48,453 nt of DNA from an uncultured Candidatus Saccharibacteria bacterium. Lineage in GTDB: Bacteria; Patescibacteriota; Minisyncoccia; UBA6257; 2-01-FULL-56-20. The stretch covers positions 18,601-67,053 of the forward strand of contig CAZYEL010000005.1 of the NCBI GenBank assembly GCA_964646415.1, given 5' to 3'. A model generated the notes under the pieces. It worked only from the letters and a program-made list of their open reading frames with translations, made no database searches and was not told the DNA's origin. Numbering within the stretch: position 1 is the stretch's first letter; every line of letters begins with the position of its first letter. Positions 8,412 to 33,891 of this stretch are shown one piece after another. The translations under genes were made by a program, and so were the position numbers.

Positions 8412-8448
8412 AAGGTTAAACCTTAAGAATTCCCCAAGGTTCAACCTT
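8412..8448. promoter_or_regulatory. Double palindrome AAGGTTNAACCTT (copy A), upstream of paralog 1
   Basis: AAGGTTAAACCTT 8412-8424 and AAGGTTCAACCTT 8436-8448; ATG at 8459. Function inferred only. Confidence 0.6.
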
Positions 8449-8458
8449 GAAGAATCCA

Positions 8459-10237
8459 ATGAATTCCGAAACCAAGGTTTGTCAAAACTGCAACAATAAT
8501 TTCACAATCGAATCGGCTGATCGTGAGTTTTACAAGAAAGTGCAGGTGCCTCCGCCCACGTTTTGCCCGGAGTGCAGGTTCACGCGCCGCTTGATTTTAA
8601 GAAATGAGCGCGGCCTTTATAAGAGAAAATGCGATCTTTGCGGGGAGGAGAAGATAGTATCGTTTCCATTCCAAAGCCCGTTTAAAGTTTATTGCAAAGA
8701 ATGTTGGTGGAGCGACAAGTGGGATGCGGGAATATATGGCCGCGAGTATGATTTTTCTAAACCGTTTTTCGAACAGTTTTTTGATTTGGTTAAAGCGGTT
8801 CCTCGTCCGGGGATCGTTCATCAAGGGATGATTGTAGATAGCCCATATACCAACCGAGCGAGCAATCTCAAGAATTGCTATTTGCTTTATGCGAGTAACT
8901 TTGACGAGAATTGTTCTTACGGCGCGTGGTTCAACGATTCGAAAGATTCGATGGACGGTCTGGCGGTTCAAAAATCGGAGCAATGCTATGAGTGCATAGA
9001 TTGCGTTGAGTGCAGCCGGTTATTATATTCGCAGGAATGTATCGCGTGCAGTAACTCGTATTTTTTGCTGAATTGCCGCAATTGCGAGAGCTGTTTCGGA
9101 TGCGTCAATCTGCGGAATAAAAGCTACTGCATATACAACAAGCAGTATTCGAAAGAGGATTACAAACGGGTGCTCGCGCAGTTTAATCTAGGCAGTCGGA
9201 TGATGCGGGACGCCCTCGCCTTACAATTCGGAGCGCAAAAAGGAAAATATATTTTTCCGTCTTTGATTTCGCGGCACAGTCAGAACGTTTCCGGTAATTG
9301 GATCGAAGAATCCAAAAATGTATTCAGGGGGTTTTCCTGCCGGAAGGTGGAAGATGCGAGATATTCTTCCATGCTTGTCGAATCGAAAGACGTGATGGAT
9401 TACTCGTTCTGGGGCCGCGCGACCGAGCTTATTTATGAATCTGTGAATATAGGGTATCAATCTTCGAATATCCGTTTCAGCACAGAAATTTGGGATAATG
9501 CCGCAGACATAACTTATTCTTTTAATTGCCACAGTTCCCATGATCTTTTTGGGTGTGTCGGATTAAGGAAAAAGGATTATTGCATTTTAAACAAGCAGTA
9601 TTCAAAAGAAGACTTTGAGGCAATCTCCAAAAAAATAATCGAACAGATGAAGACGATGCCGTATATCGATGGCAAGGGCAGGAAATATTCGTACGGAGAG
9701 TTTTTCCCCGCGGACTTGCATCTTTTTGCGTACAATGAGACGACCGCGCATGAATATTTTCCGCTGACAAAAGAAGATGCTCTGCGGCAGGGATATGCAT
9801 GGAAGGATGGAGAGGGCCGCAATTATAAAATAACGCTTCCGGCGGATCAAATTCCTGACGGTATAAAAGAGGTGTCCGGTGACATTCTGAAAGAGATTGT
9901 GGGGTGTGCGCACGCCGGAAATTGCAATCACCAGTGCACTACCGCGTTTCGCGTCACTTCGGAGGAGCTTCAATTTTATAAGACTTTCGGAATACCTATC
10001 CCGCAGTTTTGTCCGAATTGTCGGTATTATGAACGCGTGAGCAAAAGGAACCCCTTGAAATTATGGGCAAGAAAATGCGAGTGCGGCGGGGATCGCGCTA
10101 TGCGGGGCGCTTATAAAAATAACTCCGCGCATTCCCACGGAACAGATCCTTGTGCTGTGGTGTTTGAGACAAGCTACGCCCCCGACCGACCGGAAATCGT
10201 GTATTGCGAGAACTGCTACAATGCCGAGGTCGCATAA
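8459..10237 (+). CDS. Cys-rich multi-zinc-ribbon protein, paralog 1
   Basis: N-terminal CxxC...PPxxCxxCR, W-x-D-x-WD, two CxxCxxC...FGC-x-x-LR-x-K-x-YCI-x-NKQYSKE modules, YGEFFP...AYNET, C-terminal YCxxCY; about 35 Cys by my count. Confidence 0.9.
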   Translation: MNSETKVCQNCNNNFTIESADREFYKKVQVPPPTFCPECRFTRRLILRNERGLYKRKCDLCGEEKIVSFPFQSPFKVYCKECWWSDKWDAGIYGREYDFSKPFFEQFFDLVKAVPRPGIVHQGMIVDSPYTNRASNLKNCYLLYASNFDENCSYGAWFNDSKDSMDGLAVQKSEQCYECIDCVECSRLLYSQECIACSNSYFLLNCRNCESCFGCVNLRNKSYCIYNKQYSKEDYKRVLAQFNLGSRMMRDALALQFGAQKGKYIFPSLISRHSQNVSGNWIEESKNVFRGFSCRKVEDARYSSMLVESKDVMDYSFWGRATELIYESVNIGYQSSNIRFSTEIWDNAADITYSFNCHSSHDLFGCVGLRKKDYCILNKQYSKEDFEAISKKIIEQMKTMPYIDGKGRKYSYGEFFPADLHLFAYNETTAHEYFPLTKEDALRQGYAWKDGEGRNYKITLPADQIPDGIKEVSGDILKEIVGCAHAGNCNHQCTTAFRVTSEELQFYKTFGIPIPQFCPNCRYYERVSKRNPLKLWARKCECGGDRAMRGAYKNNSAHSHGTDPCAVVFETSYAPDRPEIVYCENCYNAEVA

Positions 10238-10244
10238 ACCCACC

Positions 10245-10281
10245 AAGGTTAAACCTTGGGAACCCCTAAAGGTTTAACCTT
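10245..10281. promoter_or_regulatory. Double palindrome AAGGTTNAACCTT (copy B), upstream of paralog 2
   Basis: AAGGTTAAACCTT 10245-10257 and AAGGTTTAACCTT 10269-10281; ATG at 10291. Confidence 0.6.
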
Positions 10282-10290
10282 AACGAATCC

Positions 10291-11985
10291 ATGAATTCCG
10301 AAACAAGAAAATGTAAAAGTTGCAGCTCAGAATTTGTTATCGAACCAGATGACTTCGCGTTCTACGAAGCCGTCCACGTCCCGCCGCCGACGTGGTGCCC
10401 GCAATGCCGACTTGTGCGGCGACTTTCGTGGCAGGGGTACCGGATGCTTTATAAACGGAAGTGTGACTTTACGGGGGAAATGATGCTCACTACGCATCAC
10501 CCTGATGCCCCACACAAAATGTATCGGCAGGATGTGTGGTGGTCGGATAAATGGGACCCCAAGAGCTACGGACGCGATTATGATTTTTCGAAGTCGTTCT
10601 TTGAACAATTCCGGGAGCTTTTCAAAGTAGTGCCGCTCCCGAACTTATATACGGTATATTCAGCGATGACGAACAGCGACTACTGCAATGCTGCCTCCGG
10701 TCTCAAAAATTGCTACTTGTGTTTTCGCATCACTAGTGGTGAAGACAGCGCTTATTTGAACAAGGTCGTGGACGCAAAAAACTCACTCGATTCTTCTTTT
10801 ATAAATCAAGTGGAACTTTGTTATGGCTCGGTTCGCCTCAATAAATGTTATGGGGTTTTCTTCTCGCAGGATTGTGACAATTGCCACAACGTCTGGTTCT
10901 CGAAGGACCTCACGGGATGCTCGGATTGCATCGGATGTATCAATCTCCGAAGCAAGCAGTACTGCATTTTCAATGAACAACATACGAAAGAAGAGTATGA
11001 AAAGTTTCGAGGCGAGCTTGATATTGGTTCGCCGGAGCATCTTGCGGAGTTCAGAGCGAAGGCGGAAGTGTTCTTTGCAAAGCATCCGCGGAGGAATTTC
11101 CATGGGCTGAAAAACACCGATGTTTCCGGCGATTACATTTTTAATTCCAAAAATGTCAAAGACTCATATATGCTCGGGAATGGAGAAAATCTTCGATATT
11201 GTTATCTCTTGAAAAATGGGCCTGCGCGGAATTCCTACGATTGGTCTATTTTCGGTGATAATGGCGAATGGATTTACGATTCCGTATGGGTGGGGCTTAC
11301 CGCATCACACAATAAATTTTCTGCTTGGAACTACGGTTCCCGCGATATTGAGTACTGCTTTGGGTGTATGAATTCGGGAAATCTCTTCGGGTGCGTGGGT
11401 TTGCGAGGCGGAACGGAGTATTGCGTGTTGAACAAGCAACACACGAAGAGCGAGTATGCGGAGCTTGTGACGCGCATCAAAAAGCAGATGCTTGAGGTTC
11501 CATATCGCGACCGGCTCGGGCGCGAATATCGTTATGGAGAAATGTTGCCGGCGGAGATGAGCCCTTGGCTTTATAACGAGTCCACGGCCCATGAATGGTT
11601 CCCGAAAAAGAAAGAAGAGGCGCTCGCCGAGGGTTTCTTGTGGCGCGACCCGGATGTGCGGGAATACCGCGAGGCGACCGTGCAGCTTCCCGAACATATA
11701 AAGGACATTCCCGACAGTATTACGAAGGAAATCCTGAAATGCGGCGCATGCGGAAAAAACTACCAGATTATTCCGATGGAGCTCCAGTTTCTCCGCCGTT
11801 TCGGCTTGCCTGTGCCGCGCGAGTGCCCGCTTTGCCGTGACCGGGCGCGGATACAACAGCTTAATCCGATGGATATCTATAACCGTACTTGCGCAAAGTG
11901 TGGCAAGGCTATCCAAACTTCGTATGCCCCTAACCGACTCGAAATTATATACTGTGAACAATGCTATCAGAAAGAAGTTATATAA
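10291..11985 (+). CDS. Cys-rich multi-zinc-ribbon protein, paralog 2
   Basis: Same motif order as paralog 1; ends in a compact CxxC...CxxC ribbon (CAKCGKAIQTSYAPNRLEIIYCEQC). Confidence 0.9.
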   Translation: MNSETRKCKSCSSEFVIEPDDFAFYEAVHVPPPTWCPQCRLVRRLSWQGYRMLYKRKCDFTGEMMLTTHHPDAPHKMYRQDVWWSDKWDPKSYGRDYDFSKSFFEQFRELFKVVPLPNLYTVYSAMTNSDYCNAASGLKNCYLCFRITSGEDSAYLNKVVDAKNSLDSSFINQVELCYGSVRLNKCYGVFFSQDCDNCHNVWFSKDLTGCSDCIGCINLRSKQYCIFNEQHTKEEYEKFRGELDIGSPEHLAEFRAKAEVFFAKHPRRNFHGLKNTDVSGDYIFNSKNVKDSYMLGNGENLRYCYLLKNGPARNSYDWSIFGDNGEWIYDSVWVGLTASHNKFSAWNYGSRDIEYCFGCMNSGNLFGCVGLRGGTEYCVLNKQHTKSEYAELVTRIKKQMLEVPYRDRLGREYRYGEMLPAEMSPWLYNESTAHEWFPKKKEEALAEGFLWRDPDVREYREATVQLPEHIKDIPDSITKEILKCGACGKNYQIIPMELQFLRRFGLPVPRECPLCRDRARIQQLNPMDIYNRTCAKCGKAIQTSYAPNRLEIIYCEQCYQKEVI

Positions 11986-11991
11986 CGACCG

Positions 11992-13746
11992 ATGTTGATT
12001 GAAACAAGAAGTTGCCAGAATTGTAAAAACCAGTTTGTCATCGAGCCGGAAGATTTTGATTTTTACAAAAAGATGTGTGTGCCGCCGCCGACATTCTGTC
12101 CCGACTGCCGGGCTCAACGGCGGATGCTGTGGCGCAACGAACGTACCTACTACAAGAGGCCTTGTAACGCACCCGGGCACAGTGAGGGCGTCATCAGTAT
12201 CATTGCACCCGAATCGCCCTTCGTCATTTTCGATCAACAATATTGGTGGAGTGATAGTTGGGATCCGCTTGATGCTGGTCGCGACCTCGATTTTTCAAAA
12301 CCGTTTTTTAAACAGTATCGCGAGCTTTTGGAACGAGTGCCAATCATAGCGCTTTCGAACACAAACTCGGTGAATAGCGATTACTGCAGTTCTGCAGCAT
12401 GGAACAAAGATTGCTATCTAATTAGCGGCGGAGGGTGGGATGAGCGAGTATCTTATGCAAATCGCGCCGTCAAGGTGAAGGATTCGCTTGATGTCTACAT
12501 CGTCGATAACAGCGAACTTTGTTACGACTGCTCATACTGCACAAAGTGTTACCGACTTCTCATGAGCCGTAACTGTGAGGCATGCAGCGAATCCGCTTTC
12601 CTTTACAATTGCCGAAATTGTTCAAGCTGTTTTGGCTGTGCGAATTTGCGAAGTAAGCAGTATTGCTTCTTCAATGAACAACTGACGAAAGAAGAGTACG
12701 AAAGGCGCGTACGCAGTGCCGACATTGGTAGTTTCCGTGCTTTGCAGGGCGTTGCACGACGGTTTCACAATTGCGTGTATTTGAAAGCTATCCACAAGTA
12801 CGCGGATATTATGAATTGTACCAACGCGACTGGCGACCATATTCGTAACGCGCGGAACTGTCGCGACTGTTTTGATATTGGCGGTGACGACACTGAACAC
12901 TGCCGTTTTGTGAACTGGAGCGGTTTCAAGACGAAGGACCTCTACGATACTGGCCCGGGTGCCGGATGGAACTCCGAAATGCTTTACGAGGGGCTTGACC
13001 TAAACGACTCATCCCGGCTTGTTGGTTGTGTGACGAACTATAACTGTCAGGATATGTGGTACTGCGTTAATTGCCACAATTCGAGCGACTGCTTTGGTTG
13101 TTACGGGCTTCGCAGTAAACAGCACTGTATTCTGAATAAGCAGTATTCGGAGGAGGAGTATAAGGCGCTACTCTCGAGTGCCAAAGAGCATATGGAAAAG
13201 ATGCCTTACATTGATGCACAAGGGAGGAGGTATGGTCTCGGCGAGTTTTTCCCACCGGAGATACAGCCATTCGCGTACAACGAAACAATAGCGCAAGAGT
13301 ACTTTCCACTGACAAAAGAAGTGGCAACAAGGCAGGGGCATCGGTGGCGCGAGCAAGACGCCCGTCACTATACGGTTACGCTGCATGCAAGAGACGTTCC
13401 AGACCATATCAAAGACGTTTCCGATGATATTCTAAGAGAAATCATAGAGTGTGAACATGCCGGGGCATGTTTGGAACAATGCACGACAGCGTTCAAAATC
13501 ATCCCTGGAGAATTGCAGCTCTATCGGCGACTAGGCATTCCATTACCCCATCTTTGTCCAAACTGTCGGCACTACCAACGCCTTGCACAGCGCAACTCTT
13601 TGAAACTTTGGCACCGTCAATGCATGTGTAATAAAAGCCATCGAGAACACTCCGGGCAGTGCCTAAACGAGTTTGAGACGAGTTATGCACCGGAGCGTCC
13701 GGAAATCGTTTATTGCGAGCAGTGTTACCAACAGGAAATTTCATAA
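11992..13746 (+). CDS. Cys-rich multi-zinc-ribbon protein, paralog 3
   Basis: Same architecture; 6-bp gap from paralog 2. Confidence 0.9.
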   Translation: MLIETRSCQNCKNQFVIEPEDFDFYKKMCVPPPTFCPDCRAQRRMLWRNERTYYKRPCNAPGHSEGVISIIAPESPFVIFDQQYWWSDSWDPLDAGRDLDFSKPFFKQYRELLERVPIIALSNTNSVNSDYCSSAAWNKDCYLISGGGWDERVSYANRAVKVKDSLDVYIVDNSELCYDCSYCTKCYRLLMSRNCEACSESAFLYNCRNCSSCFGCANLRSKQYCFFNEQLTKEEYERRVRSADIGSFRALQGVARRFHNCVYLKAIHKYADIMNCTNATGDHIRNARNCRDCFDIGGDDTEHCRFVNWSGFKTKDLYDTGPGAGWNSEMLYEGLDLNDSSRLVGCVTNYNCQDMWYCVNCHNSSDCFGCYGLRSKQHCILNKQYSEEEYKALLSSAKEHMEKMPYIDAQGRRYGLGEFFPPEIQPFAYNETIAQEYFPLTKEVATRQGHRWREQDARHYTVTLHARDVPDHIKDVSDDILREIIECEHAGACLEQCTTAFKIIPGELQLYRRLGIPLPHLCPNCRHYQRLAQRNSLKLWHRQCMCNKSHREHSGQCLNEFETSYAPERPEIVYCEQCYQQEIS

Positions 13747-15302: not shown

Positions 15303-15614
15303 ATGTCTAAATTCGCAATTATCGAAACCGGAGGCAAGCAATACAAAGTTGCCGCCGGGGACAAAGTAAAGGTAGAGAAGCTTGACGCGGAAGCGGGGAG
15401 CGCTTTTTCCTTTGATAAGGTGCTTCTCACCGCAGAGGGAGAAAAAGTGACGCTCGGCGCGCCGTATATCTCCGGCGTGAAGGTGGAGGGAAAGGTGCTC
15501 CGCCAGGCGCGCGACCGCAAGAAAATCATCTTTAAGTATCACGCGAAGACGCGGCAGAAAAAGAAGAAGGGCCATCGGCAGCCGTTTACGGAAGTCGAAA
15601 TAGTGAAAGTCTAG
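15303..15614 (+). CDS. rplU: 50S ribosomal protein L21
   Basis: FAIIETGGKQYKV...GHRQPFTEVEI; rpmA does not follow it. Confidence 0.97.
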   Translation: MSKFAIIETGGKQYKVAAGDKVKVEKLDAEAGSAFSFDKVLLTAEGEKVTLGAPYISGVKVEGKVLRQARDRKKIIFKYHAKTRQKKKKGHRQPFTEVEIVKV

Positions 15615-15618
15615 CCAC

Positions 15619-15655
15619 AAAAGAAACCGGCGGCCTCGCTTGTGCGAAGTCGCCG
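15619..15655 (-). terminator. Probable intrinsic terminator after the orphan ORF (between convergent genes)
   Basis: Minus strand: CGGCGACTTCGC-ACAA-GCGAGGCCGCCG imperfect stem followed by GTTTCTTTT. Confidence 0.5.
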
Positions 15656-15679
15656 TGATGTTGCGCCTCCGGGCGGATG

Positions 15680-16105
15680 TTACAGCGCCGTAAAGACTTT
15701 CTTGAATCCCTGACGCTTCAATCTTGGTATGATGTCATCGTTGAGATCCTTGAGTGCAGAGCTGATCGCTTTCCCGTAGTTTTCTGAATCAGGATCGTTT
15801 CCCGCCTCAAAGACCTCCTCTCCGTCAATCTCGCGCGTACAGTAAATGTGCGGAGTGCAGATGCCTTTCTTCAGGTCGAAGGCAATCAAGGTGACTTCGC
15901 AATCGTCAACGTTCCCATCCTCGCTTTTATCCGCGAAGACCGGAAGGCAAATTACATGCCCAACCATCGGGAGGGTGGGAATAGAGATATTAGTTTTGAA
16001 GAACCCCGTGACGCTTCTGGAGCATGACGGACTATCGGCGGAAGGGAATCTCGCCTCGTATGTAAGGGACAGTATAGCTTTCATAATAACTTTCCTTTCT
16101 TTCAT
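15680..16105 (-). CDS. Hypothetical protein under a SAM-I riboswitch
   Basis: 141-aa ORF with GAAAGG shortly upstream of ATG; no motif recognised. Confidence 0.7.
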   Translation of the reverse strand: MKERKVIMKAILSLTYEARFPSADSPSCSRSVTGFFKTNISIPTLPMVGHVICLPVFADKSEDGNVDDCEVTLIAFDLKKGICTPHIYCTREIDGEEVFEAGNDPDSENYGKAISSALKDLNDDIIPRLKRQGFKKVFTAL

Positions 16106-16119
16106 TTTGAATACCTTTC

Positions 16120-16161
16120 AAAGAACAAAAACAACCGCCACACGCGGTTGATTTGTTCTTT
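16120..16161 (-). terminator. Intrinsic terminator, expression platform of the SAM riboswitch
   Basis: CAACCGC-GTGTG-GCGGTTG followed by TTTTTGTTCTTT; the stem can extend with AAAGAACAAA/TTTGTTCTTT. Confidence 0.75.
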
Positions 16162-16163
16162 AG

Positions 16164-16262
16164 ACATCTCTCCCCGTGAAGGGCAGGTTCGCACGTTACC
16201 TACAAGGCACGTTGCGGGCGGAGCATTGGGCCAGTCCCTTAGCATCTCCGCGCTCTTGATGT
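16164..16262 (-). promoter_or_regulatory. SAM-I (S-box) riboswitch aptamer
   Basis: Minus strand: ACATC-AAGAG-C-GCGGAG...GGG-ACTGG-CCC...CTCCGC-C-CGCAACG...CGTGCG-AA-CCTG-CCC-TTCAC-GGG-GAGA-GATGT. P1 is ACATC/GATGT; P3 core CGCAACG/CGTGCG is a covariant of the canonical GGCAACC/GGTGCC. Confidence 0.85.
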
Positions 16263-16280
16263 GTATTCGGTTGTACGGAA

Positions 16281-16309
16281 ATAATAACAAACCCTAAAAC
16301 GAGTGTCAA
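16281..16309 (-). promoter_or_regulatory. sigma70-type promoter for the riboswitch leader
   Basis: TTGACA (16309-16304), 17 bp, TATTAT (16286-16281), with TGn extension. Confidence 0.75.
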
Positions 16310-16310
16310 C

Positions 16311-16928
16311 TTATTTTCTCTTTACTTCCCACACGCGGCCAAAGCGAGTCCATCTTTTCAAAATTTCTGCTTTCGGAAGCCGCATGAAGTAGCGGTTCCC
16401 TTCAAAAAGCTTTGTGTACTCAATGCCCGCTGCTTTATGTGTATCGCAAATATAAAAATTATCAGTATCGTATCCGTAGACGAACATTATATGGTCAAGC
16501 AGTCCGCCGAAGCCCAGCGCAATATCGATTCCGACGGTATCCCCCGAGTCCACAATTTTCTCGACGTTGTCTATTGCTGCTGCGCCATTCTTCCCGTTGG
16601 GCGTGAGAATCGCCCGCGCAAATTGATTGAAGCTGTTAATTTCCCTTCCATTAATTGAAAGTGTGAGATTTTTTGAGGCGAGTAATTTTGGAATATGAAT
16701 AAATTGGGCTTGTGTCCACGCGAGCCAGGATGGGACAGATAAGCCAAAAATTCCTTTCCGTTCGATTTCTTGGGGATTATTCTTTTGCGGGCTGAATTCC
16801 GATGGATAAAAGTAATGTAGCGCATAGTATAAGAAATCCCGGCCGCAGCGGTTCTTTATATATTCACCGTTCTTTTCCTCTCGTTCGACAAAGCCGAATT
16901 CTTCGATGTTTACAGGGAGAGTTTTCAT
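16311..16928 (-). CDS. Papain-fold / peptidase C39-like protein
   Basis: NRCGRDFLYYAL (Cys), DHIMFVYGYD (His), FYICD (Asp) in C39-like order. Confidence 0.55.
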   Translation of the reverse strand: MKTLPVNIEEFGFVEREEKNGEYIKNRCGRDFLYYALHYFYPSEFSPQKNNPQEIERKGIFGLSVPSWLAWTQAQFIHIPKLLASKNLTLSINGREINSFNQFARAILTPNGKNGAAAIDNVEKIVDSGDTVGIDIALGFGGLLDHIMFVYGYDTDNFYICDTHKAAGIEYTKLFEGNRYFMRLPKAEILKRWTRFGRVWEVKRK

Positions 16929-16967: not shown

Positions 16968-19334
16968 TCAGTATCCCTTGTTTGCAATGAGAAGCTCCAA
17001 AACTTCCCTTGGGAAGAGTGGTGGGCGTTCCGCAAGCGCCTGGTGGTAAAAGACTGTTGAGGGGGTGATGCCTGGGAGGGTGTTTACTTCGATGATAAAG
17101 AGGTTGCCGGTGGAGAGATGTGCGAACGCATCGAGACGGGAATATCCCCGGATGCCCAGATGTGCTGCGACCGTTTCAATCCGTTCTTTGACGCGCCGAA
17201 GGACGCGCGGCGCCATGAGTATCTCCGGCGGCGGGGTGATATTCACGCCCGTCCCCCCCTGGAATTTTTCTTCGACGGAGAGAACTTCTCCTTCCGCGAC
17301 GGTGATGCTGGGATTGAGCGCGTGTAGTTCTCCGGCTTTTTCGACTACCCCGACCGTTATCTCGAGCCATCCTGTTTTTCTGTGGTGCTTGAGCGTGTGA
17401 TGCACCACTTTCAGCGTATCGGTTTCAACGAAACGTTCAAAGAGAAGCTCTGCGGGCGTTTCCGGTGGCATCTCGATTATTTCCGGTTGATGCGCGAAAG
17501 TGTTTTTTGATGCGCGCGGCGCATGCGCCGCGAGGAGGCGGATATATTTTCCGAGGTCATTTAAAGAGTAAAGATGCACGACGCCGGTGGAGCATCCGTC
17601 GGCGCGGGGTTTTATGACAATAGTGCGCGTCCCCAGTTCTTTCCTGGTCTTTTTCCAGAACTTTTGGACACCGGTGACATCCATGCGCAAAAGAAATTCG
17701 GTTTTTACGGTGGTGCCGGGAATTGCACGGACGCCTTTGATGCCCATTGTGTCGACGGCGATGGACGTTGCGCGTTTATCCATGCACAACCGCGATGCTT
17801 TCCCATCCGGTCCATTGTAGCGTACGCCGCATTTCTCAAAAAGCGCTTGGAGCGTGCCGTCTTCTCCCACGCCCCCGTGGAGCGCATTAAAAACGAATGA
17901 AGCACCTTTGAGAAATTCCCGAAGCGTCATTTTCTCGGGTACGAAGAACTCCTCTTGGTTTTTTTCTTCCTGGAGTCCCAGGCGGAGCCGTGCGCGCGCT
18001 TCAAATGCATCAAGGCGCTCTTTTGCCCTGGGGTATTGGGTGCAGTTCGCCGTGATTTCTTCGACGGTGTGATTCAGCGCGAGGTGGTACGGCAGCCGCC
18101 ACACGCCGCCTTTCGTATCAAGAAGGTAGGGGATGGGTCTATAGCGCGAGGAGCCGCGGAGTTTGAGCCACACGTTCGTGCCGCTCATGAGCGATACTTG
18201 GCGTTCCGACGTGTTTCCGCCGAAGAGCACGCGCACTTCTTTGCGTTTCGCGGGTGCCTCTGTCTTTTTCCCGGGGAAGGCAATGCGGTTGCGCGCGCAT
18301 GCATTCCGGAGAATATGCTGGAGTACGTCCGCATGTGTCATACCGATGCGCGCGGCTTGCTGAAAAAGAAAACTGTTTTGTTCCATGCCGCTTACCGTGT
18401 TGAAATCCGAAAACCATATGTTTCCGTCGGGGAGGACCCACCCGTCGAACCGCCCGAAGTCCCGTACATTGAAGAGTGCGAAGAGTTGCTCGGCTTGGGC
18501 TTGTATTCTCTCAATTACGTGATTATCGAATCGCGGGGGACAGTGCCAGATGACCTGCCGCGTGGGGAGATATTTCCTCCGGAAATCGAAGATTTGGTGC
18601 TGGGTATAGTCGGTTTCGATCTCGGTGGGAGGAAGCGCCACGGGCGTGCCGAAGCGGTTTTGGAGGATGATAGTAGTGAACTCCGTGCCCTCCGCGAAGG
18701 GTTCGATGACTACCCGGGTTGCCATCCGTTTCGAGAAGATGAGGCGCACCTTCTCGAGTGCTTCCTTGGGTGTCGCGACCGAGAACACGCCGATGCTTGA
18801 ACCTCCGCGCGCGGGCTTCACCACCGCACGCCGTACGCGGTGTGCCTCAAAAAATTGCTTGATGATTGCGCGGTGGTCGCGGTGATAAATTTTGAGCACT
18901 GCGGAAGGCAATGCGAAAAAACCGTGCGCGCGTATGAACTCATTCGCGTCGAACTTGTCGAATGCGCGTTCGCATGTGCGGGAGTCGGACCCGACAAAAG
19001 GGATGCGGTGATGCTCAAGAAAGCGTTGTATGCCTCCGTCTTCCCCGAAGTGGCCGTGCATTACGGGGAAGACGATATCGGCGCGCTTGAGGAAGCGTGC
19101 GAGCGATGCGGGCGAGAGCGGTGTCCCGGCTTGCCGGAGTTTGAAATCAAAGTCGGATGGAGTGTTGCTGTAAAGTTGCGCTTTTGAGATAGCATAGGCA
19201 TTTTTTTGCGAATCCAGATACACGGGGATCACTTCAATCTCGCGCGAGGAGAGGTGATCAAGCACCGACCGCGCGGAGTTTAAAGAAATGCCCCGCTCAA
19301 GAGATGGCCCTCCGCAGATAATGGCGACTTTCAT
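16968..19334 (-). CDS. ddl: D-alanine--D-alanine ligase with two fused Ddl domains
   Basis: Two ATP-grasp units: GGPSLERGISLNS...HGHFGEDG...KPARGGSSIG...RRKY and GGNTSERQVSLMS...HGGVGEDG...KPRADGCSTG...EEKF...EVNTLPG. Confidence 0.88.
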   Translation of the reverse strand: MKVAIICGGPSLERGISLNSARSVLDHLSSREIEVIPVYLDSQKNAYAISKAQLYSNTPSDFDFKLRQAGTPLSPASLARFLKRADIVFPVMHGHFGEDGGIQRFLEHHRIPFVGSDSRTCERAFDKFDANEFIRAHGFFALPSAVLKIYHRDHRAIIKQFFEAHRVRRAVVKPARGGSSIGVFSVATPKEALEKVRLIFSKRMATRVVIEPFAEGTEFTTIILQNRFGTPVALPPTEIETDYTQHQIFDFRRKYLPTRQVIWHCPPRFDNHVIERIQAQAEQLFALFNVRDFGRFDGWVLPDGNIWFSDFNTVSGMEQNSFLFQQAARIGMTHADVLQHILRNACARNRIAFPGKKTEAPAKRKEVRVLFGGNTSERQVSLMSGTNVWLKLRGSSRYRPIPYLLDTKGGVWRLPYHLALNHTVEEITANCTQYPRAKERLDAFEARARLRLGLQEEKNQEEFFVPEKMTLREFLKGASFVFNALHGGVGEDGTLQALFEKCGVRYNGPDGKASRLCMDKRATSIAVDTMGIKGVRAIPGTTVKTEFLLRMDVTGVQKFWKKTRKELGTRTIVIKPRADGCSTGVVHLYSLNDLGKYIRLLAAHAPRASKNTFAHQPEIIEMPPETPAELLFERFVETDTLKVVHHTLKHHRKTGWLEITVGVVEKAGELHALNPSITVAEGEVLSVEEKFQGGTGVNITPPPEILMAPRVLRRVKERIETVAAHLGIRGYSRLDAFAHLSTGNLFIIEVNTLPGITPSTVFYHQALAERPPLFPREVLELLIANKGY

Positions 19335-21621: not shown

Positions 21622-21658
21622 AGGTTGAACCTTAAAGAGTCCCTAAAGGTTCAACCTT
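21621..21658. promoter_or_regulatory. Double palindrome AAGGTTNAACCTT (copy C), upstream of paralog 4
   Basis: AAGGTTGAACCTT 21621-21633 and AAGGTTCAACCTT 21646-21658; ATG at 21669. Confidence 0.6.
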
Positions 21659-21668
21659 GAGCGAGTGT

Positions 21669-23471
21669 ATGAATTCCGAAACCAAAACCTGCCAGAGTTG
21701 TAAAGCGCAATTTACGGTTGCGCCGGATGACTTCGCGTTCTATGAAAAACTGAAAGTCCCGCCGCCCACATGGTGTCCGGAATGCCGGATGGTGCGGCGG
21801 TTAGTGTGGAGAAATGAGCGTTGTCTATACAAACGGAAGTGCGACCTATGTAGCGTCGCCGTTTTTTCCGCATTCGCACCCCGAGCCCCTTATACGGTTT
21901 ATTGTGTGGAGTGTTATGCATCGGACAAATGGGATGCCGCGCAGCATGCCCGACCCTACGATTGGAATAAAAGTTTCTTCGAGCAATGGCACGCTCTTTT
22001 TGCCGATGTTCCCCAGCGGAACTTGTACGTTACCAACTCTACCAATTCTCCCTATGGCGGAAACATGTTGCGCGATTCTACTCGTATCTATCTTTCCTAT
22101 TCTCTCTTAAGCTCGGAAGACGTGTTTTACTCGAAAGATATTGATAAATCCCGCTCGGTTTTTGACAGCTTTGATTTGGTGGAGTCAGAGAATGTGTTCC
22201 AAGGGGTGCTTGGGTATAAGAACTATAACTGCGATTTTATCTATTTTTCTCGCAGCTGCATGGATTCTCGGTATCTCTATGATTGCGTGAATTGCCGCAA
22301 TTGTTTTATGTGCACGAATCTTCGTAATAAGGAGTTTTGTATTAGAAATAAGCCATACGCGAAAGAGGAATATCAGAAAGAAATCAGCGGAATTGATTTT
22401 GGAAGTTACACAACCTCCTCTGCTCTCTACGGGGAGTTCTTAGAATTAACAAAGAATGCGCTTCATAAGTATGCGACCATTCTCAATTGCTCGCACTGCA
22501 CGGGAAATGACCTTATCAACTCGAAAAATGCGCGCGCATGTTTCAGCAGTCATGACATTGAGAATGTGAAATTCGCATTCCGCATTTTGACGACGCGGGA
22601 CTCTATGGACCTTACCTATCTCGGTTTGAATGCCGAACTTCTGTATGAGTGCCAGGGAACCGGGAGCGCGCACAGCTCATTTGTTCGATTCAACGTTCAT
22701 GGATTCGACGGGCACAACCATGATTTGCAGTACACCGCGAATTGCGGTTTCTCATCACATCTTTTCGGATGTGTCGGAATTCGGAATAAGCAATATTGCA
22801 TTTTAAACAGGCAATATTCAAAGGAAGAATATGAGGTGCTTGTGCCGAAGATTATCGCGCATATGGACGAGATGCCGTATGAATCGCGTGGAGTGAATAG
22901 CGAAGTGCGTATCGTGTATCGGTACGGGGAGTTTTTTCCCGTTGAGTTTTCGCCGTTTGCGTATAATGAAACGCTTGCGCAGGAGTGCTTTTCGCTTACG
23001 AAGGAAGAAGCGGATACACGAGGATACCAATGGAGGGAACCAGAAACGAAACACTACCGTATCACGAAACCCCCCGATGACATTCCCGGTCACATCAAAG
23101 ATGCCGACGATTCAATATGCAGTGAAGTGATAGGATGTGCGCATGGGGGGTTGTGCAAACATCAGTGCGCGACTGCGTTTAAGGTTCTACGCGAGGAACT
23201 TCAGTATTACAAGAAGAGAAATATTCCCTTGCCGCGGCTGTGCCCAAACTGCAGGCATTATGAGCGGCTGGCACAGCGAAATCCGTTGAAGCTGTGGCAT
23301 CGGCGTTGCATGTGCAGCGGGATGAATAGCGTAGAGCGTAGAGCGTATAGCAACACCGTCGCGCACTCCCACGGGAACAGTCCGTGCCCTAACGAATTCG
23401 AAACGCCGTACGCGCCGGAGCGGAAGGAAATCATATATTGTGAGTCGTGTTACAACTCGGAAATCGTGTAG
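21669..23471 (+). CDS. Cys-rich multi-zinc-ribbon protein, paralog 4
   Basis: Starts MNSETKTC like paralogs 1 and 2; same motif order. Confidence 0.9.
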   Translation: MNSETKTCQSCKAQFTVAPDDFAFYEKLKVPPPTWCPECRMVRRLVWRNERCLYKRKCDLCSVAVFSAFAPRAPYTVYCVECYASDKWDAAQHARPYDWNKSFFEQWHALFADVPQRNLYVTNSTNSPYGGNMLRDSTRIYLSYSLLSSEDVFYSKDIDKSRSVFDSFDLVESENVFQGVLGYKNYNCDFIYFSRSCMDSRYLYDCVNCRNCFMCTNLRNKEFCIRNKPYAKEEYQKEISGIDFGSYTTSSALYGEFLELTKNALHKYATILNCSHCTGNDLINSKNARACFSSHDIENVKFAFRILTTRDSMDLTYLGLNAELLYECQGTGSAHSSFVRFNVHGFDGHNHDLQYTANCGFSSHLFGCVGIRNKQYCILNRQYSKEEYEVLVPKIIAHMDEMPYESRGVNSEVRIVYRYGEFFPVEFSPFAYNETLAQECFSLTKEEADTRGYQWREPETKHYRITKPPDDIPGHIKDADDSICSEVIGCAHGGLCKHQCATAFKVLREELQYYKKRNIPLPRLCPNCRHYERLAQRNPLKLWHRRCMCSGMNSVERRAYSNTVAHSHGNSPCPNEFETPYAPERKEIIYCESCYNSEIV

Positions 23472-23505
23472 TTAGAAAATAGCAAGTAGAAATATAGAAA
23501 ATAGA

Positions 23506-25248
23506 ATGAAACCAGAAGTAAGAAAATGCAAAGAATGCGCCGCTCAATTCCCGATTGAAGCGGACGATATTGAGCTTTACGAGAAGTTCAAGGTGCCCGC
23601 GCCGGTGCGGTGCCCGGACTGCCGTCAGCGCCGGAGGTATTCTTGGCGGAACGAGCGTGTGCTCTACCGCCGGAATTGCGACCTCTGCAGGAAAAGCACG
23701 GTAACGATTTATTCGCCGAACAAGCCCTTCAAGGTGTATTGCCCGCCTTGTTTTTGGTCGGATAAATGGACTGGGCTTGATTACGGGCGCGAGTTTGATT
23801 TCAATAAGCCCTTCTTCCCGCAATGGCGGGAGCTGCAGCTTGAAGTACCGCGCATTGCGCTTCTCACCAAGAACAGCGTGAATTCGGAGTATACGAACCA
23901 CTCAAGCAATAACCGGAATTGCTATTTGAGTTTCAGTACATTCGAGTCCGAAAACATTATGCATTCGGCGAATGTGTGGAAGCAATCAAGGGATTGCGTT
24001 GATTGTTACCTCGCAAGCGTGGAGGGTGGCGCGGAATTGTGCTATGAGTGCGTGAATTCCGCGCGGATGTTTAACTGCCAATTCGGCGTGTTGCTTAAGG
24101 ATTGCACGGATTGCTTTTATTCTTACGACCTTCGCAGCTGTTCAAACTGCTGTCTTTCGTGGAATCTCCGGAACAAGCAGTATCACATCTTGAATGTCGG
24201 GCACTCGAAGGAGGAGTATGAGAAGAGATTTGCCGAATTGAATCTTGGGTCTTTTGTGGGGCGCGAGGCTTTGTATGCTCAATTTAAAGAGCTGCTGGAG
24301 AAGCGGGCCCTCCACAAATTCGCGGTGATTGAAAAATGCGTGAACGTGTCGGGGAATATGCTTTTCAACTCGAAAAATACGCGCCATTCGTTCGACGTGG
24401 ATAAAACGGAAGACACCAAATACGGGATTATCACGCCCGATGTGAAGAATTCTATGGATTCATATCATTATGGATTTGCCTGCGAGCTGATTTACGAGTC
24501 GCACGCGCTGATCCACGACTACGATGTGAAGTTTACGCACTTAAGTTACGACAACTCCCATTTGGAATACTGCGATTCGTGCCATAACTCCGAGAATCTT
24601 TTCGGTTGCGTGGGCATAAAGCAAGGGAAGTATGCAATTTTCAACAAACGGTACGAGGAGAGTGAATACGCGGCGCTCAAGAACCGCATTATCGCGCACA
24701 TGAAAGAGACGGGGGAATACGGTGAATTTTTTCCGCCGGAGCTGTCGCCCTTCGGATACAACGAAACCCAGGGGCAGGTATATATGCCCCTCAAAAAGGA
24801 AGAAGCGGCGGCGAAGGGTTATAAATGGGAAGACCTTACGCCGGGCACGTTCGGCAAGGAAACATTGAAACCCGGAAGCATCCCCGACGACATCAAGGAT
24901 ATCCCTGATACTATTTTGAAAGAAGCGCTTGCATGCGTCTCGTGCACGCGAAATTATAACGTGGTACAAGCCGAACTCGATTTCTACCGGCGCGTGCAGG
25001 TCCCCATTCCCAGGGCTTGCCCCGAATGCCGCTATCGCCGGCGGCTTGAGCGGCGTTTGCCGCGGAAGCTTTGGCATAGGCGTTGCAACTGCAACGCGGC
25101 AAATAGCAAAGAGCAAATAGCCCATAGAAACACGGCTCCGCATTTCCACGGCGATGCACCGTGCCCCAATGAATTTGAGACGCCGTATGCGCCGGAGCGG
25201 AAGGAGGTCGTGTACTGCGAGCAGTGTTATCAGGCGGAAGTGGCATAG
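23506..25248 (+). CDS. Cys-rich multi-zinc-ribbon protein, paralog 5
   Basis: Same architecture; preceded by a TAG-initiated heptamer array (23473-23508). Confidence 0.9.
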   Translation: MKPEVRKCKECAAQFPIEADDIELYEKFKVPAPVRCPDCRQRRRYSWRNERVLYRRNCDLCRKSTVTIYSPNKPFKVYCPPCFWSDKWTGLDYGREFDFNKPFFPQWRELQLEVPRIALLTKNSVNSEYTNHSSNNRNCYLSFSTFESENIMHSANVWKQSRDCVDCYLASVEGGAELCYECVNSARMFNCQFGVLLKDCTDCFYSYDLRSCSNCCLSWNLRNKQYHILNVGHSKEEYEKRFAELNLGSFVGREALYAQFKELLEKRALHKFAVIEKCVNVSGNMLFNSKNTRHSFDVDKTEDTKYGIITPDVKNSMDSYHYGFACELIYESHALIHDYDVKFTHLSYDNSHLEYCDSCHNSENLFGCVGIKQGKYAIFNKRYEESEYAALKNRIIAHMKETGEYGEFFPPELSPFGYNETQGQVYMPLKKEEAAAKGYKWEDLTPGTFGKETLKPGSIPDDIKDIPDTILKEALACVSCTRNYNVVQAELDFYRRVQVPIPRACPECRYRRRLERRLPRKLWHRRCNCNAANSKEQIAHRNTAPHFHGDAPCPNEFETPYAPERKEVVYCEQCYQAEVA

Positions 25249-25271
25249 ACACGACTGATGATTCATAGCCA

Positions 25272-27029
25272 ATGACGGAAGTGAGAACGTGCCAAAACTG
25301 CAAACAGGAATTTACGATAGCTCCCGAGGACTTTGATTTTTATAAAAAAGTAAAGGTTCCGCCCCCGACGTTTTGTTGGAAGTGTAGATTTCAGAGGAGA
25401 TTGACCTATAGGAACGAGCGGAATCCGTTTTGGGCGACGAGCGGTAAATCCGGGAAGCGGATACTCTCGATTTTTCCTCCCGAGGCGGGCGTTACGGTCT
25501 ATGATGAAAAGGAGTGGCGGTCGGATGATTGGGACGGGATGGACTACGGCAGGGATTATGATTTCTCGAGGCCGTTTTTCGAGCAAATACATGAATTAGC
25601 AAAAACGGTGCCGCGTTTCGGGCCGCACACGGAGGACAACGTGAATTGCGAGTACCTCGTCAATACCGGCTGGAGCAAAAACTGTTATCTCGTGTGCAAC
25701 ACTTCGTATGCGGAGGATTGCGCGTATGGTAACGCCATGGACTATTGCAAGTCCTCGTTCGATTGTTCGCATGTGACGAAATGCGAACGGTGTTATGGAT
25801 GTTTTTGGACCAGAGAGTCATATCAAACTCATTTTTCCACGCGCTCGATAAGCAATGCCTCAAGTTGGTGTCTCTTTGGTTGCAAAGGCATGACTGACTG
25901 TTTCGGGTGCGTGAATATGATGAACAAGAGCCACTATATCTTTAACCAGCCTTACTCCAGGGAAGAATACGAAGCGAAGATCGGGGCAATGAAGCTTAAT
26001 ACCTGGTCGGGACTCCAAAAAGCAAAGGCGGAGGCGTTTGCCTTCGCGGCAAAGTTTCCCGTGGCATATCTGAACGGAGTTCTGAATGACAACGTGACCG
26101 GGGAATATGTCAGTGAATCAAAGAATGTGCAGTATGGGTATCTGGTGAACGGCGGGAGAGATTTAAAATACGTGCAATACCTCCAAATTCCTGGCGCGGA
26201 GGATTCGCAGGACCTCACCATTTGGGGAGAAAAACACATATTGGGATATGAAAACGCGACCTCCGGCCTTGGAGTCTCAAATTGCCAGTTTTTGGAAGGA
26301 TGCTGGGCGGAGGTTTTTGATTCTCAATATTGTATTGCATGCCGCAACATTTCAAACTGTTTCGGGTGCGTGGGGTTGAAGAAAAAACAATGCTGTATTT
26401 TCAATAAGCAATATTCGAAAGGCGAGTATGAGAAGCTGAAAGCAAAAATAATCGCGCACATGAACGCGATGCCGTTCGTGGATAAAGCGGGAAGAGTATA
26501 TAAATATGGAGAATTTTTCCCTGCGGAGCATGCCCTTTGCGGGTACAACATCTCTCTGGCGAATGAACACTTTCCCTTGACCAAAGAGGAGGCATTGGCA
26601 CAGGGGTATCTGTGGACAGATATGAAATACGGGGATCACAAAGTGACGGTCATGCCGGACAAAATCCCCGATGCCATTGAAGATGTGCCCGACACGTTCA
26701 CGAAGGAAATTTTGGAATGCATGCAATGCAAAAAGGCATTCCGGGTAGTTCCCATGGAACTCGAATTCCTCAAAGCCGTAAAAATTCCGGTTCCGCGCAC
26801 GTGTGGCGACTGCCGACACAGTGAAAGGATTTCCCGGCGAGCGAAGGCGTTTCTCTACCATCAAACATGTGAATGTGCGGGGGCAAAATCCTCAAACGGG
26901 GTCTACGCGAATTTCACGAAGCATATTCATGGTGATGTGCCTTGTCCGGAAGAGTTTGAAACAAGCCATGATAAAAGTCGCCCTGAAATTGTTTATTGCC
27001 TCAAGTGTTTTTGGGCGGAAGTGGGGTAA
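25272..27029 (+). CDS. Cys-rich multi-zinc-ribbon protein, paralog 6 (most divergent)
   Basis: Same architecture, but the second CxxC/CxxC site is replaced (SGKS...YDEKE). Confidence 0.9.
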   Translation: MTEVRTCQNCKQEFTIAPEDFDFYKKVKVPPPTFCWKCRFQRRLTYRNERNPFWATSGKSGKRILSIFPPEAGVTVYDEKEWRSDDWDGMDYGRDYDFSRPFFEQIHELAKTVPRFGPHTEDNVNCEYLVNTGWSKNCYLVCNTSYAEDCAYGNAMDYCKSSFDCSHVTKCERCYGCFWTRESYQTHFSTRSISNASSWCLFGCKGMTDCFGCVNMMNKSHYIFNQPYSREEYEAKIGAMKLNTWSGLQKAKAEAFAFAAKFPVAYLNGVLNDNVTGEYVSESKNVQYGYLVNGGRDLKYVQYLQIPGAEDSQDLTIWGEKHILGYENATSGLGVSNCQFLEGCWAEVFDSQYCIACRNISNCFGCVGLKKKQCCIFNKQYSKGEYEKLKAKIIAHMNAMPFVDKAGRVYKYGEFFPAEHALCGYNISLANEHFPLTKEEALAQGYLWTDMKYGDHKVTVMPDKIPDAIEDVPDTFTKEILECMQCKKAFRVVPMELEFLKAVKIPVPRTCGDCRHSERISRRAKAFLYHQTCECAGAKSSNGVYANFTKHIHGDVPCPEEFETSHDKSRPEIVYCLKCFWAEVG

Positions 27030-27040
27030 AATAAGAAAGT

Positions 27041-33080: not shown

Positions 33081-33308
33081 CTACTCTTCGAGATACCCTC
33101 CCGTTTGGTTTTTGTTCGGATATGTGCGGATTGATTCCTCAATCGTATCCATCGCATCCTCAAGCTTCCGGGCGACATTTTCGATGACGCGTCCGCGGTC
33201 AAGCGATCCCGTTTGGAAGTTGCCGAGAAGATTCCATGCCTCGTGGCCGATTTCAAATGAAATTGTGCTAAGGTACTTCGGCATTTCTTCGGGTGAAATG
33301 ATTGCCAT
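33081..33308 (-). CDS. Hypothetical 75-aa protein under a fluoride riboswitch
   Basis: Most plausible ORF between the riboswitch and the convergent kinase; no motif recognised. Confidence 0.55.
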   Translation of the reverse strand: MAIISPEEMPKYLSTISFEIGHEAWNLLGNFQTGSLDRGRVIENVARKLEDAMDTIEESIRTYPNKNQTGGYLEE

Positions 33309-33390: not shown

Positions 33391-33420
33391 AAAAATCCTC
33401 TACCCTAAAAGTGGTAGAGG
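33391..33420 (-). terminator. Terminator overlapping the fluoride aptamer 3' strand
   Basis: CCTCTACC-ACTTTTAG-GGTAGAGG then ATTTTTATT. Confidence 0.8.
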
Positions 33421-33467
33421 TCATCAGTCCCGCATGAGCCGGGACGGTTATTGCGAACCTCATCGCC
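33414..33467 (-). promoter_or_regulatory. Fluoride (crcB) riboswitch aptamer
   Basis: Minus strand: GGCGATGAGGTTCGC-AATAACC-GTCCCG-GCTCATG-CGGGAC-TGATGACCTCTAC. P1 GCGA/TCGC, pseudoknot GAGGT/ACCTC, conserved GATG and CTGATG. Confidence 0.9.
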
Positions 33468-33891
33468 TGTCCTTATTATACAATTTCAAATACATTTCCA
33501 CCGGTTCGCGGGTGGTTTGGGTGAGCGGTTCGGGGAGCTTGTCGATTGGAAACCAGCCGAATTCCTTGGTTTTGTCCGGTTCACAGTTTCGAGGTTTGCC
33601 TTTTGTGATGCGCGCGAGGTAGTGGAACGCCACCCAATGTTCTTTTTCTGCGGGGAGAATTTGGTTGGTAAATCCGAGGGATTCAAGGAGTTCGATTTCC
33701 ACTCCGAATTCTTCTTTTACTTCGCGCCGCACGGCGTCCTCCACCGTTTCGCCGTACTCCACGGCGCCGCCGGGTTTGCACCACATGCCAATCTCGTTCC
33801 TGTTTTTGCGCTTGAGGAGAAGGGTCTCGCCGCAGTCGTTCACGATGAGCGCGCCGCACCCCACGCCGATGTAGTCTTTTCCAGGTTCCAT
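33460..33891 (-). CDS. NUDIX hydrolase
   Basis: Nudix box GGAVEYGETVEDAVRREVKEEFG; start at ATG 33891 (alternative GTG 33918). Confidence 0.92.
   Translation of the reverse strand: MEPGKDYIGVGCGALIVNDCGETLLLKRKNRNEIGMWCKPGGAVEYGETVEDAVRREVKEEFGVEIELLESLGFTNQILPAEKEHWVAFHYLARITKGKPRNCEPDKTKEFGWFPIDKLPEPLTQTTREPVEMYLKLYNKDRR

Follow-up and report, generated by a model that had tools for sequence, protein, structure and literature searches.

What does a riboswitch of the class that responds to S-adenosylmethionine (SAM) control when the gene behind it resembles nothing in the databases, and when the organism presumably must obtain its methionine from a host? This question is raised by a one-gene cassette in a 48,453-nt stretch of DNA from an uncultured “Candidatus Saccharibacteria” bacterium (contig CAZYEL010000005.1 of assembly GCA_964646415.1), which we call the window. 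The cassette, which lies on the minus strand, combines a promoter, a SAM-I-class leader, an intrinsic terminator, and an open reading frame (ORF) that is an orphan; coordinates are positions in the window unless another contig is named. Riboswitch-controlled genes of undefined function rank among the best leads to new metabolism, and here a known signal, low SAM, would be tied to an uncharacterized response gene in a host-dependent organism. We conclude that the cassette is probably an OFF switch repressed by SAM, derived from a metK-type leader with a remodeled kink and driving a lineage-restricted, nonessential gene, which low SAM would induce.

The leader and its relatives

A preliminary description, made from the letters of the stretch, had proposed a consensus promoter (TTGACA-17-TATTAT), a SAM-I aptamer with a covarying P3 core, an intrinsic terminator, and a single unrecognized ORF of 141 amino acids (aa). 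The promoter, aptamer, terminator, and ORF were all recovered, and covariation of the P3 core became visible with relatives, as described below. The promoter (16281..16309, −) is of the sigma-70 type and matches 11 of 12 consensus positions, with TTGACA at 16309-16304, a spacer of 17 nt, and TATTAT at 16286-16281 preceded by the TG of an extended −10 element. It starts 2 nt past the stop codon of an upstream gene encoding 205 aa (16928..16311). A short leader segment (ACAACCGAA; 16266..16274, −) then precedes the 105-nt aptamer (16161..16265, −), whose helices P1 to P4 form a four-way junction according to the match to the Rfam family, the minimum-free-energy fold, and covariation.

The Rfam SAM model (RF00162) aligned to the aptamer (16265..16161) over its full length, model positions 1 to 108, with a score of 41.8 bits. 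The E value was 5e-8 in a search of 801 nt and 3.1e-6 when the whole window was compared with all 4227 Rfam families. Identity as SAM-IV or SAM-I/IV was rejected, as SAM-I scored best within clan CL00012 (cmscan dropped two lower-scoring clan matches) and P4 lies inside the junction. The curated gathering score of RF00162 is 44.4 bits, 2.6 bits above the aptamer, and a default Rfam scan is therefore silent on this element. Without constraints, the leader folded into the SAM-I four-way junction followed by the terminator (−63.7 kcal/mol; z = −4.2), a value that none of 200 shuffles equaled. Every upper-case consensus core position is kept in J1/2 (AAGAG), in P3 (GCAAC...GUGC), and at the junction end of P1 (AUC/GAU), and the core nucleotides of these three elements are those that contact SAM in the 2GIS structure. 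By homology the aptamer is thus a SAM-I-class element, and we infer that it binds SAM.

To place the score in the context of the lineage, we used a covariance model made from the window aptamer and that of a sister leader, L095 (described below), over 1.18 Mb of mostly Patescibacteria DNA. The search returned four further full-length SAM-I elements, in L013 (Nomurabacteria; 10757-10858), L015 (Kaiserbacteria; 13380-13480), L018 (a Patescibacteria metagenome-assembled genome [MAG]; 6020-6120), and L039 (Kaiserbacteria; 11994-12094), which score 43.8, 40.7, 42.7, and 42.2 bits with RF00162, respectively. Directly downstream of three of the four leaders are genes that carry all three Pfam domains of MetK (E values of 1e-27 to 1e-54), and the contig end downstream of the fourth encodes MFHLLQRYTTESVTSGHPDKVCD, the MetK N terminus. 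Judged from sequence, SAM-I riboswitches occur in Patescibacteria on their classical target, metK. A literature search, confined to the searchable library, returned no report that links SAM riboswitches to Patescibacteria, the candidate phyla radiation, Parcubacteria, or Saccharibacteria. An earlier scan at the gathering threshold had been empty for L013, L015, and L039 because their scores lie below it, and a regular expression for the SAM-I core run over 1.1 Mb found the window's own copies only; the metK leaders escaped it owing to their different P2b and loop.

The class A RNase P RNA of this genome (29601-29978, −), an essential RNA, was likewise recovered with the full model at 91.7 bits, compared with a gathering score of 100. 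Since the metK leaders and the RNase P RNA also fall below their thresholds, we attribute the shortfall of the window aptamer to a lineage effect, and by score the element fits the SAM-I family as well as the metK leaders do. The preliminary description had held that a sub-threshold covariance score would count against the riboswitch. In the comparison with RF00162 that it proposed, the match is full length at an E value of 3.1e-6 and the score is indeed below 44.4 bits, yet this shortfall is uninformative, given that authentic metK leaders from this lineage score 40.7 to 43.8 bits. All five elements in identifiable Patescibacteria DNA score just under the cutoff, so default pipelines miss them, and riboswitch regulation in the reduced genomes of Patescibacteria is probably undercounted.

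Similarity to the metK leaders extends past the aptamer. The 5′ segment upstream of P1 reads ACAACCGAAUA in the window and ACAACUGAAUA in the metK leaders, with the leader segment at 16266..16274 matched by ACAACUGAA. This conservation suggests that the window and metK leaders have a common ancestor over their whole length, beyond the aptamer, and the window leader is most likely a diverged copy of the metK leader of other Patescibacteria.

A sister of the aptamer is on a metagenome contig, L095 (Ga0163153_10155731). When metagenomes were scanned for the variant P2 sequence described below, six contigs matched, five of them by chance, and the same pattern had no match in the viral contigs scanned. 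The L095 element scores 45.3 bits, over the Rfam gathering score. Its aptamer is 85% identical to that of the window and carries an identical AUGCUA...AAUG module, and the P2a helix that flanks this module shows compensatory changes between the two. The unit on L095 has its own promoter, a strong terminator, one small orphan ORF, and a second terminator, and it differs from the window unit in having a J3/4 of standard length (AAUU), a perfect pseudoknot (CUGG:CCAG), and a 16-bp antiterminator. A fragment of an M23 peptidase on L095 is merely 37 to 41% identical to Patescibacteria M23 proteins and gives no host placement.

The window aptamer departs from the family consensus in P2, J3/4, and P4. 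The P2 internal loop had been described as AUGCUAA/AAUG and not a textbook kink-turn (k-turn), and both the model alignment and the comparison of six aptamers (the window, L095, and the four metK leaders) agree with that reading. In this variant module (16224..16245, −), the non-bulged strand carries a 6-nt AUGCUA insertion (16245-16240) followed by A1n (16239), and the other strand is AAUG (16227-16224), made up of the AAU bulge (L1 to L3) and G1b. The G1b·A1n pair is retained, the A·G at 2b·2n is replaced by a Watson-Crick C-G, and the insertion sits between 2n and 1n. The pseudoknot (16184..16234, −) joins CUGG of the P2 loop (16234-16231) to CCUG of J3/4 (16187-16184) through three Watson-Crick pairs and one U·U. 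The latter is the single mismatch that had been noted from the start; the same position is U-A in L095 and C-G in the four metK leaders, and the Rfam consensus here reads cuGG/CCug. Because the relatives covary at the U·U position, we regard the pseudoknot as supported and the window copy as weakened, the least stable-looking of the six. J3/4 is AA, 2 nt under the consensus length, and P4 has only 3 to 4 bp; a short CCC/GGG P4 is common to all six Patescibacteria-type aptamers and can therefore be considered a lineage trait. Elements of RF00162 are expected upstream of genes for the synthesis or transport of methionine, cysteine, or SAM, and the gene downstream in the window is an orphan. With this gene context, a sub-threshold score, and a non-canonical k-turn, membership in the SAM-I family is incomplete.

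Comparison of the aptamers suggests selection on the structure. Between the window and L095, four pairs have both partners exchanged with pairing kept, and 93% of cells are paired, compared with 30 to 50% when the partners are slid; with two sequences and with 35 of 500 shuffles reaching the observed values, this covariation is suggestive, not decisive. Across all six aptamers, a hand-curated comparison gave nine covarying positions, of which the pseudoknot contributes one and P1, P2a, P2b, and P3 contribute two each. All pairs in P2a and P2b and all those scored in P3 were unbroken, and G1b·A1n was always retained. The covariation first ascribed to P3 is not visible in one sequence; with the relatives, it is found in P3 and equally in P1, P2a, P2b, and the pseudoknot. 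The core nucleotides are also kept across the six aptamers, save for single changes (GCAGC in L018 and L039 and GAGAG in L015). Because the P2 module has stayed constant while its flanking helix underwent compensatory change, it appears to be a selected structure rather than a product of decay.

Termination, antitermination, and the predicted switch

The terminator is an extended hairpin (16119..16162, −; −23.6 kcal/mol) with a core stem, CAACCGC/GCGGUUG (16150-16132), that is followed by a U-run and lengthened by pairing between an A-tract and the U-tract. The final 2 nt of P1 are shared with the base of the hairpin. L095, like the window, has a strong terminator within a few nucleotides of P1, and the metK leaders also have terminators. 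When the 3′ arm of the terminator was blocked, the best alternative fold (−11.3 kcal/mol) paired the P4-3′/J4-1/P1-3′ segment (16182-16164) with the 5′ arm and loop of the terminator (16156-16138). This candidate antiterminator (16138..16182, −) is an interrupted helix with the core pairing CACGGG/CC-GCGUG, and L095 has the same topology in the form of a 16-bp helix. Pairing of the 3′ strands of P1 and P4 with the 5′ arm of the terminator is the classical antiterminator topology of S-box leaders. The L095 helix was no better than those of shuffled sequences (P = 0.19), and the same was true of the window helix (P = 0.15). Because the window antiterminator is weak and no better than shuffles, the default state of the switch may be mostly off.

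A further pairing involves the segment upstream of P1, where ACAACCG (16268-16274) is complementary to CGGUUGU in the 3′ arm of the terminator (16137-16131). All six leaders show such complementarity, to the 3′ arm and the start of the U-tract, with sequences that differ among the window, L095, and the metK group; it is marginal compared with shuffles (P of ∼0.06 for the window, 0.39 for L095, and 0.015 to 0.09 for the metK leaders). Such pairing might lock the antiterminated state.

Based on this architecture, we infer that the switch follows an OFF logic. When SAM is plentiful, it would bind the four-way-junction aptamer and lock P1 and P4, the hairpin and U-run would form, and transcription would end ahead of the ORF. 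When SAM is scarce, the free 3′ strands of P4 and P1 would engage the terminator 5′ arm, RNA polymerase would continue into the ORF, and a protein of 134 or 141 aa would be made.

The orphan gene, its loss, and its surroundings

The gene follows a ribosome-binding site, AAAGG (16118-16114), and runs from 16105 to 15680 on the minus strand (15680..16118 with the ribosome-binding site; stop codon at 15682-15680). Translation from the ATG at 16105 gives 141 aa, and the second ATG, at 16084, which has its own AAGGA and is the start chosen by gene callers, gives 134 aa. The product is acidic (isoelectric point, 5.4) and contains 5 cysteines, and inspection by eye found no hydrophobic segment suggesting a signal peptide or membrane helix. 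Its codon log-likelihood ratio is +0.18 per codon, compared with 0.24 ± 0.10 for in-frame windows of the long genes of the stretch; only 4% of off-frame windows reach this value, and all other frames score worse. The GC content at third codon positions is 0.60, compared with 0.61 for the genome. A second terminator-like hairpin (GAGGCCGCCGGTTTC) with a U-run (15613..15637, −; hairpin at 15637-15623) ends the one-gene unit ahead of the convergent rplU and is conserved on a related contig, L088. In its codon usage, ribosome-binding site, own terminator, and in-frame remnant on L088 (see below), the ORF looks like a real, native gene.

The search for homologs that the preliminary description had proposed found only the ORF product itself, both among 5.8 billion clusters (word-indexed) and among 1.84 billion representatives (exhaustive HMMER). 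There was no sequence match in Pfam, NCBIfam, PHROG, or PDB; at E values of ≤10, PDB returned only enolase and M64R noise. No paralogue was found in the window, and the AlphaFold single-sequence model was unusable (predicted local distance difference test [pLDDT] score of 42). Two candidate identities were tried and rejected. For a degraded metK, tblastn with three Patescibacteria MetK proteins had no match above noise (E > 1) in 15600-16170 and none elsewhere in the window. For a pyruvoyl AdoMet decarboxylase (SpeD/SpeH), suggested by a likeness seen by eye, there was no Pfam match at E ≤ 1, AdoMet_dc included, and no supporting match in PDB, and the sequence is without a SESH-type motif.

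The preliminary description had offered two readings of the gene, as a new SAM- or sulfur-related protein or as an unrelated gene that had captured an intact regulatory cassette. In the first, the protein itself would take part in SAM, methionine, or sulfur metabolism or sensing, for example, by binding SAM or methionine, by inhibiting an enzyme that consumes SAM, or as a small enzyme of very divergent sequence, and its link to the riboswitch would be metabolic feedback, not capture. SAM-I regulons consist almost entirely of methionine, cysteine, and SAM genes, and the class controls metK in this lineage. The unit is also tightly insulated by its own promoter and two terminators, and the sister leader on L095 likewise controls one small cytoplasmic ORF. 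That ORF (273-581 of L095, −; 102 aa) is an orphan too, with no homolog among the 5.8 billion clusters and no Pfam match; its AlphaFold single-sequence model is a low-confidence alpha/beta fold (pLDDT score of 58) for which Foldseek gave nothing better than an E value of 0.3, and PDB yielded no fold match of significance. This ORF is unrelated to the one in the window, which argues against a role in SAM metabolism, as do the empty family, PDB, and homolog searches, the unsupported likeness to AdoMet decarboxylase, the dispensability of the gene in L088, and the fact that no SAM or methionine gene was found anywhere in the 48-kb window. We consider a SAM-related protein unlikely. Capture of the cassette by an unrelated gene is the better fit, given a leader homologous to those of metK, an ORF without relatives, and an unrelated orphan behind the sister leader.

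The presence of the same leader type ahead of two unrelated orphans also bears on whether the protein matters at all. The functional product might instead be a short terminated RNA that acts in trans or as a sponge, or read-through might oppose rplU by convergent transcription, with the ORF being incidental in either case. A strong terminator would make an RNA of ∼150 nt the main product, and the unit does converge on rplU. This explanation is at odds with the native codon bias of the ORF, which is found in one frame only, with its ribosome-binding site, and with a remnant on L088 whose early substitutions are synonymous, and the dedicated terminator at 15637-15623 would halt read-through before rplU. 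No trans target was found, although complementarity to targets was not searched for. We regard an RNA product as very improbable.

The history of the locus was examined through its relatives. The closest homolog of the upstream 205-aa gene (83% identical) is on contig L088, which matches the window through the stop codon of that gene and GTTGACAC.CG (to 16300) and resumes at ∼15727. The intervening 572 nt (15728..16299, −), comprising the −10 box, aptamer, terminator, and ORF codons 1 to ∼126, are absent from L088. What remains are the −35 hexamer, the final 15 codons, still in frame (PRLKRQGFRKVSTAA versus PRLKRQGFKKVFTAL, each ending at the stop codon), and the shared terminator; the first four nucleotide differences in the 15-codon remnant are synonymous. 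Because L088 retains both the −35 box and coding sequence for the C terminus, a deletion on that contig is the best explanation of the difference. On that reading, the cassette predates the split between the window and L088 and is dispensable. The organism itself is a Patescibacterium with “Candidatus Liptonbacteria” as a near relative. Synteny was also traced through a neighboring D-Ala-D-Ala ligase fusion (Ddl-Ddl; at least 80 loci, the best 68% identical). The only syntenic species representative was L008 (Liptonbacteria), which shares PMT2, Ddl-Ddl, rplU, a 113-aa gene, DUF4921, and a zinc-finger protein, and its 260-bp gap between Ddl and rplU is made up of hairpins and contains no SAM-like element.

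The main rival explanation is that the cassette is a decaying relic in which a SAM-I-descended leader no longer binds or switches and acts as a constitutive attenuator, with the ORF barely expressed and being lost. Deletion of the whole cassette in a close relative, its absence from L008, and the lack of a homolog of the gene anywhere searched are all as expected from such a relic. So are the low score, the U·U mismatch, and the short J3/4 of the aptamer and the weak antiterminator, which also weigh against a working SAM switch, together with several other observations. The aptamer scores below the gathering threshold (41.8 versus 44.4 bits) and is the most degenerate of the six, as it alone has a U·U pair in the pseudoknot and a J3/4 shortened by 2 nt, and it is without the consensus U that opens P4. 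The antiterminator is weak and statistically insignificant, SAM binding is predicted from homology, and the compatibility of the AUGCUA insertion with a kink lies beyond the point variants that have been published. The covariation comes from six sequences, four of them closely related, in addition to the two-sequence comparison above. All 13 contigs from this organism show 100% identity over as much as 12 kb, with no ratio of nonsynonymous to synonymous polymorphism (pN/pS), no structural polymorphism, and hence no population signal. The structure models of the ORF product are unusable, and its putative role at low SAM is read from the predicted logic of the switch.

Against decay, the promoter, all four helices, the core nucleotides, the terminator, the ribosome-binding site, and a frame of 141 codons are intact together. 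The helices have been maintained by compensatory changes relative to L095, the codon usage of the ORF is that of a native expressed gene, and the metK leaders of the lineage score no better than the window aptamer. On balance, we judge it unlikely that the cassette is a relic, and we favor the SAM-repressed OFF switch. Its origin would involve the copying of a metK-type leader, remodeling of the P2 k-turn in a sublineage, and attachment of the leader to a lineage-restricted gene. The locus may thus record the life cycle of a regulatory cassette, from metK-type descent through attachment to an orphan gene to clean deletion in a sister lineage. A more tentative proposal, possible but on present evidence doubtful, is that Patescibacteria have an unannotated SAM-I branch, of which a sub-branch with the AUGCUA insertion in place of the tandem G·A k-turn has been copied off metK onto single small genes that are fast evolving or de novo (141 aa here and an unrelated 102 aa in L095). 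If so, these episymbionts would hold a set of accessory proteins induced by SAM starvation, possibly for extracting methionine or SAM from the host.

The fluoride riboswitch of the window (33476..33408, −) has the same design of a riboswitch plus a small unannotated ORF. It scores 40.1 bits against a gathering score of 34, begins within the 3′ end of a NUDIX gene, and has its own TATAAT box and terminator. The gene behind it is neither crcB nor eriC; it is a 75-aa ORF (33308..33081, −) with no Pfam match, and a hairpin comes after it. If the proposal above is true, this ORF hints at a lineage habit of placing small novel genes under riboswitch control.

Other features of the neighborhood were noted as well. 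The upstream 205-aa gene (16311-16928, −) belongs to a family of at least 170 members that are ∼50% identical and confined to Paceibacteria/Parcubacteria MAGs. The family has no Pfam model, shows a weak, sub-threshold likeness to Peptidase_C39_2 (E value, 0.15) and AllH (E value, 0.0075), and has genomic neighbors that vary among genomes. The tandem D-Ala-D-Ala ligase fusion (16968-19334, −; 788 aa) is conserved, with 54 to 68% identity, across at least 80 species representatives; most of these are Patescibacteria, and some records carry the labels Gammaproteobacteria, TM6, or Parachlamydiales. In L008, the spacer next to this gene (9368-9631) contains three long perfect palindromes and a duplicated fragment of the rplU 3′ end (…GHRQPFTELEIVRV), and the Ddl/rplU junction appears to be a rearrangement hot spot. 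The locus is flanked by two tandem arrays (8447-13746 and 21657-28810, +) that together hold seven paralogs of ∼564 to 604 aa. These have 29 to 41 cysteines each, and are 34 to 45% identical over their full length, and just one of the seven has a Pfam match, a C-terminal treble-clef zinc finger; L008 also has several copies.

Comparison with known SAM-I systems

Compared with classical S-box leaders (Bacillus subtilis yitJ and Thermoanaerobacter tengcongensis metF), the window leader has the same P1-P4 four-way junction, the same AAGAG J1/2, GCAAC/GUGC P3, and AUC/GAU P1, and a putative pseudoknot that likewise joins the P2 loop and J3/4. As in those leaders, the terminator lies directly 3′ of P1, the candidate alternative pairing uses the 3′ strands of P1 and P4, and the logic, here a prediction, is OFF. 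The window leader differs in the 6-nt P2 insertion, the C-G in place of A·G at 2b·2n, a J3/4 that is 2 nt shorter, a P4 of just 3 to 4 bp, and the U·U in the pseudoknot, and it controls an orphan, not a methionine, cysteine, or SAM gene. In Listeria, the SAM riboswitches SreA and SreB also act in trans, and a terminated SAM-I leader that accumulates as an abundant small RNA would be comparable to them only if the product of the cassette were its RNA.

A k-turn is held to be necessary for the SAM-I pseudoknot, and a natural replacement of the k-turn would be a test case for how far the riboswitch fold enforces kink geometry. Engineered variants offer the nearest comparison. In the T. tengcongensis riboswitch, loss of G1b·A1n abolished SAM binding, and SAM-I substitutions at 2b·2n and 3b·3n were tolerated, with the tertiary fold holding the kink (Schroeder, Daldrop and Lilley 2011, PMC3651934). 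Some of these variants combine a non-G·A pair at 2b·2n with an intact G1b·A1n, as is the case here; they are point substitutions (PMC3651934), whereas the window module adds a 6-nt insertion on the non-bulged strand.

Among the closest counterparts of the leader are those of metK in other Patescibacteria. These differ in having a compact, insertion-free k-turn (GUA, CGA, or UGA opposite GAC), a P2b of GAG/CUC or AAG/CUU, and a CCGG:CCGG pseudoknot; they control metK, and they score just 28 to 39 bits with the model built from the window and L095. In other respects they match the window leader, being of the same class with similar RF00162 scores (40.7 to 43.8 versus 41.8 bits) and sharing the short CCC/GGG P4, the conserved 5′ leader ACAACYGAAUA, a terminator-type expression platform, and the same phylum-level lineage.

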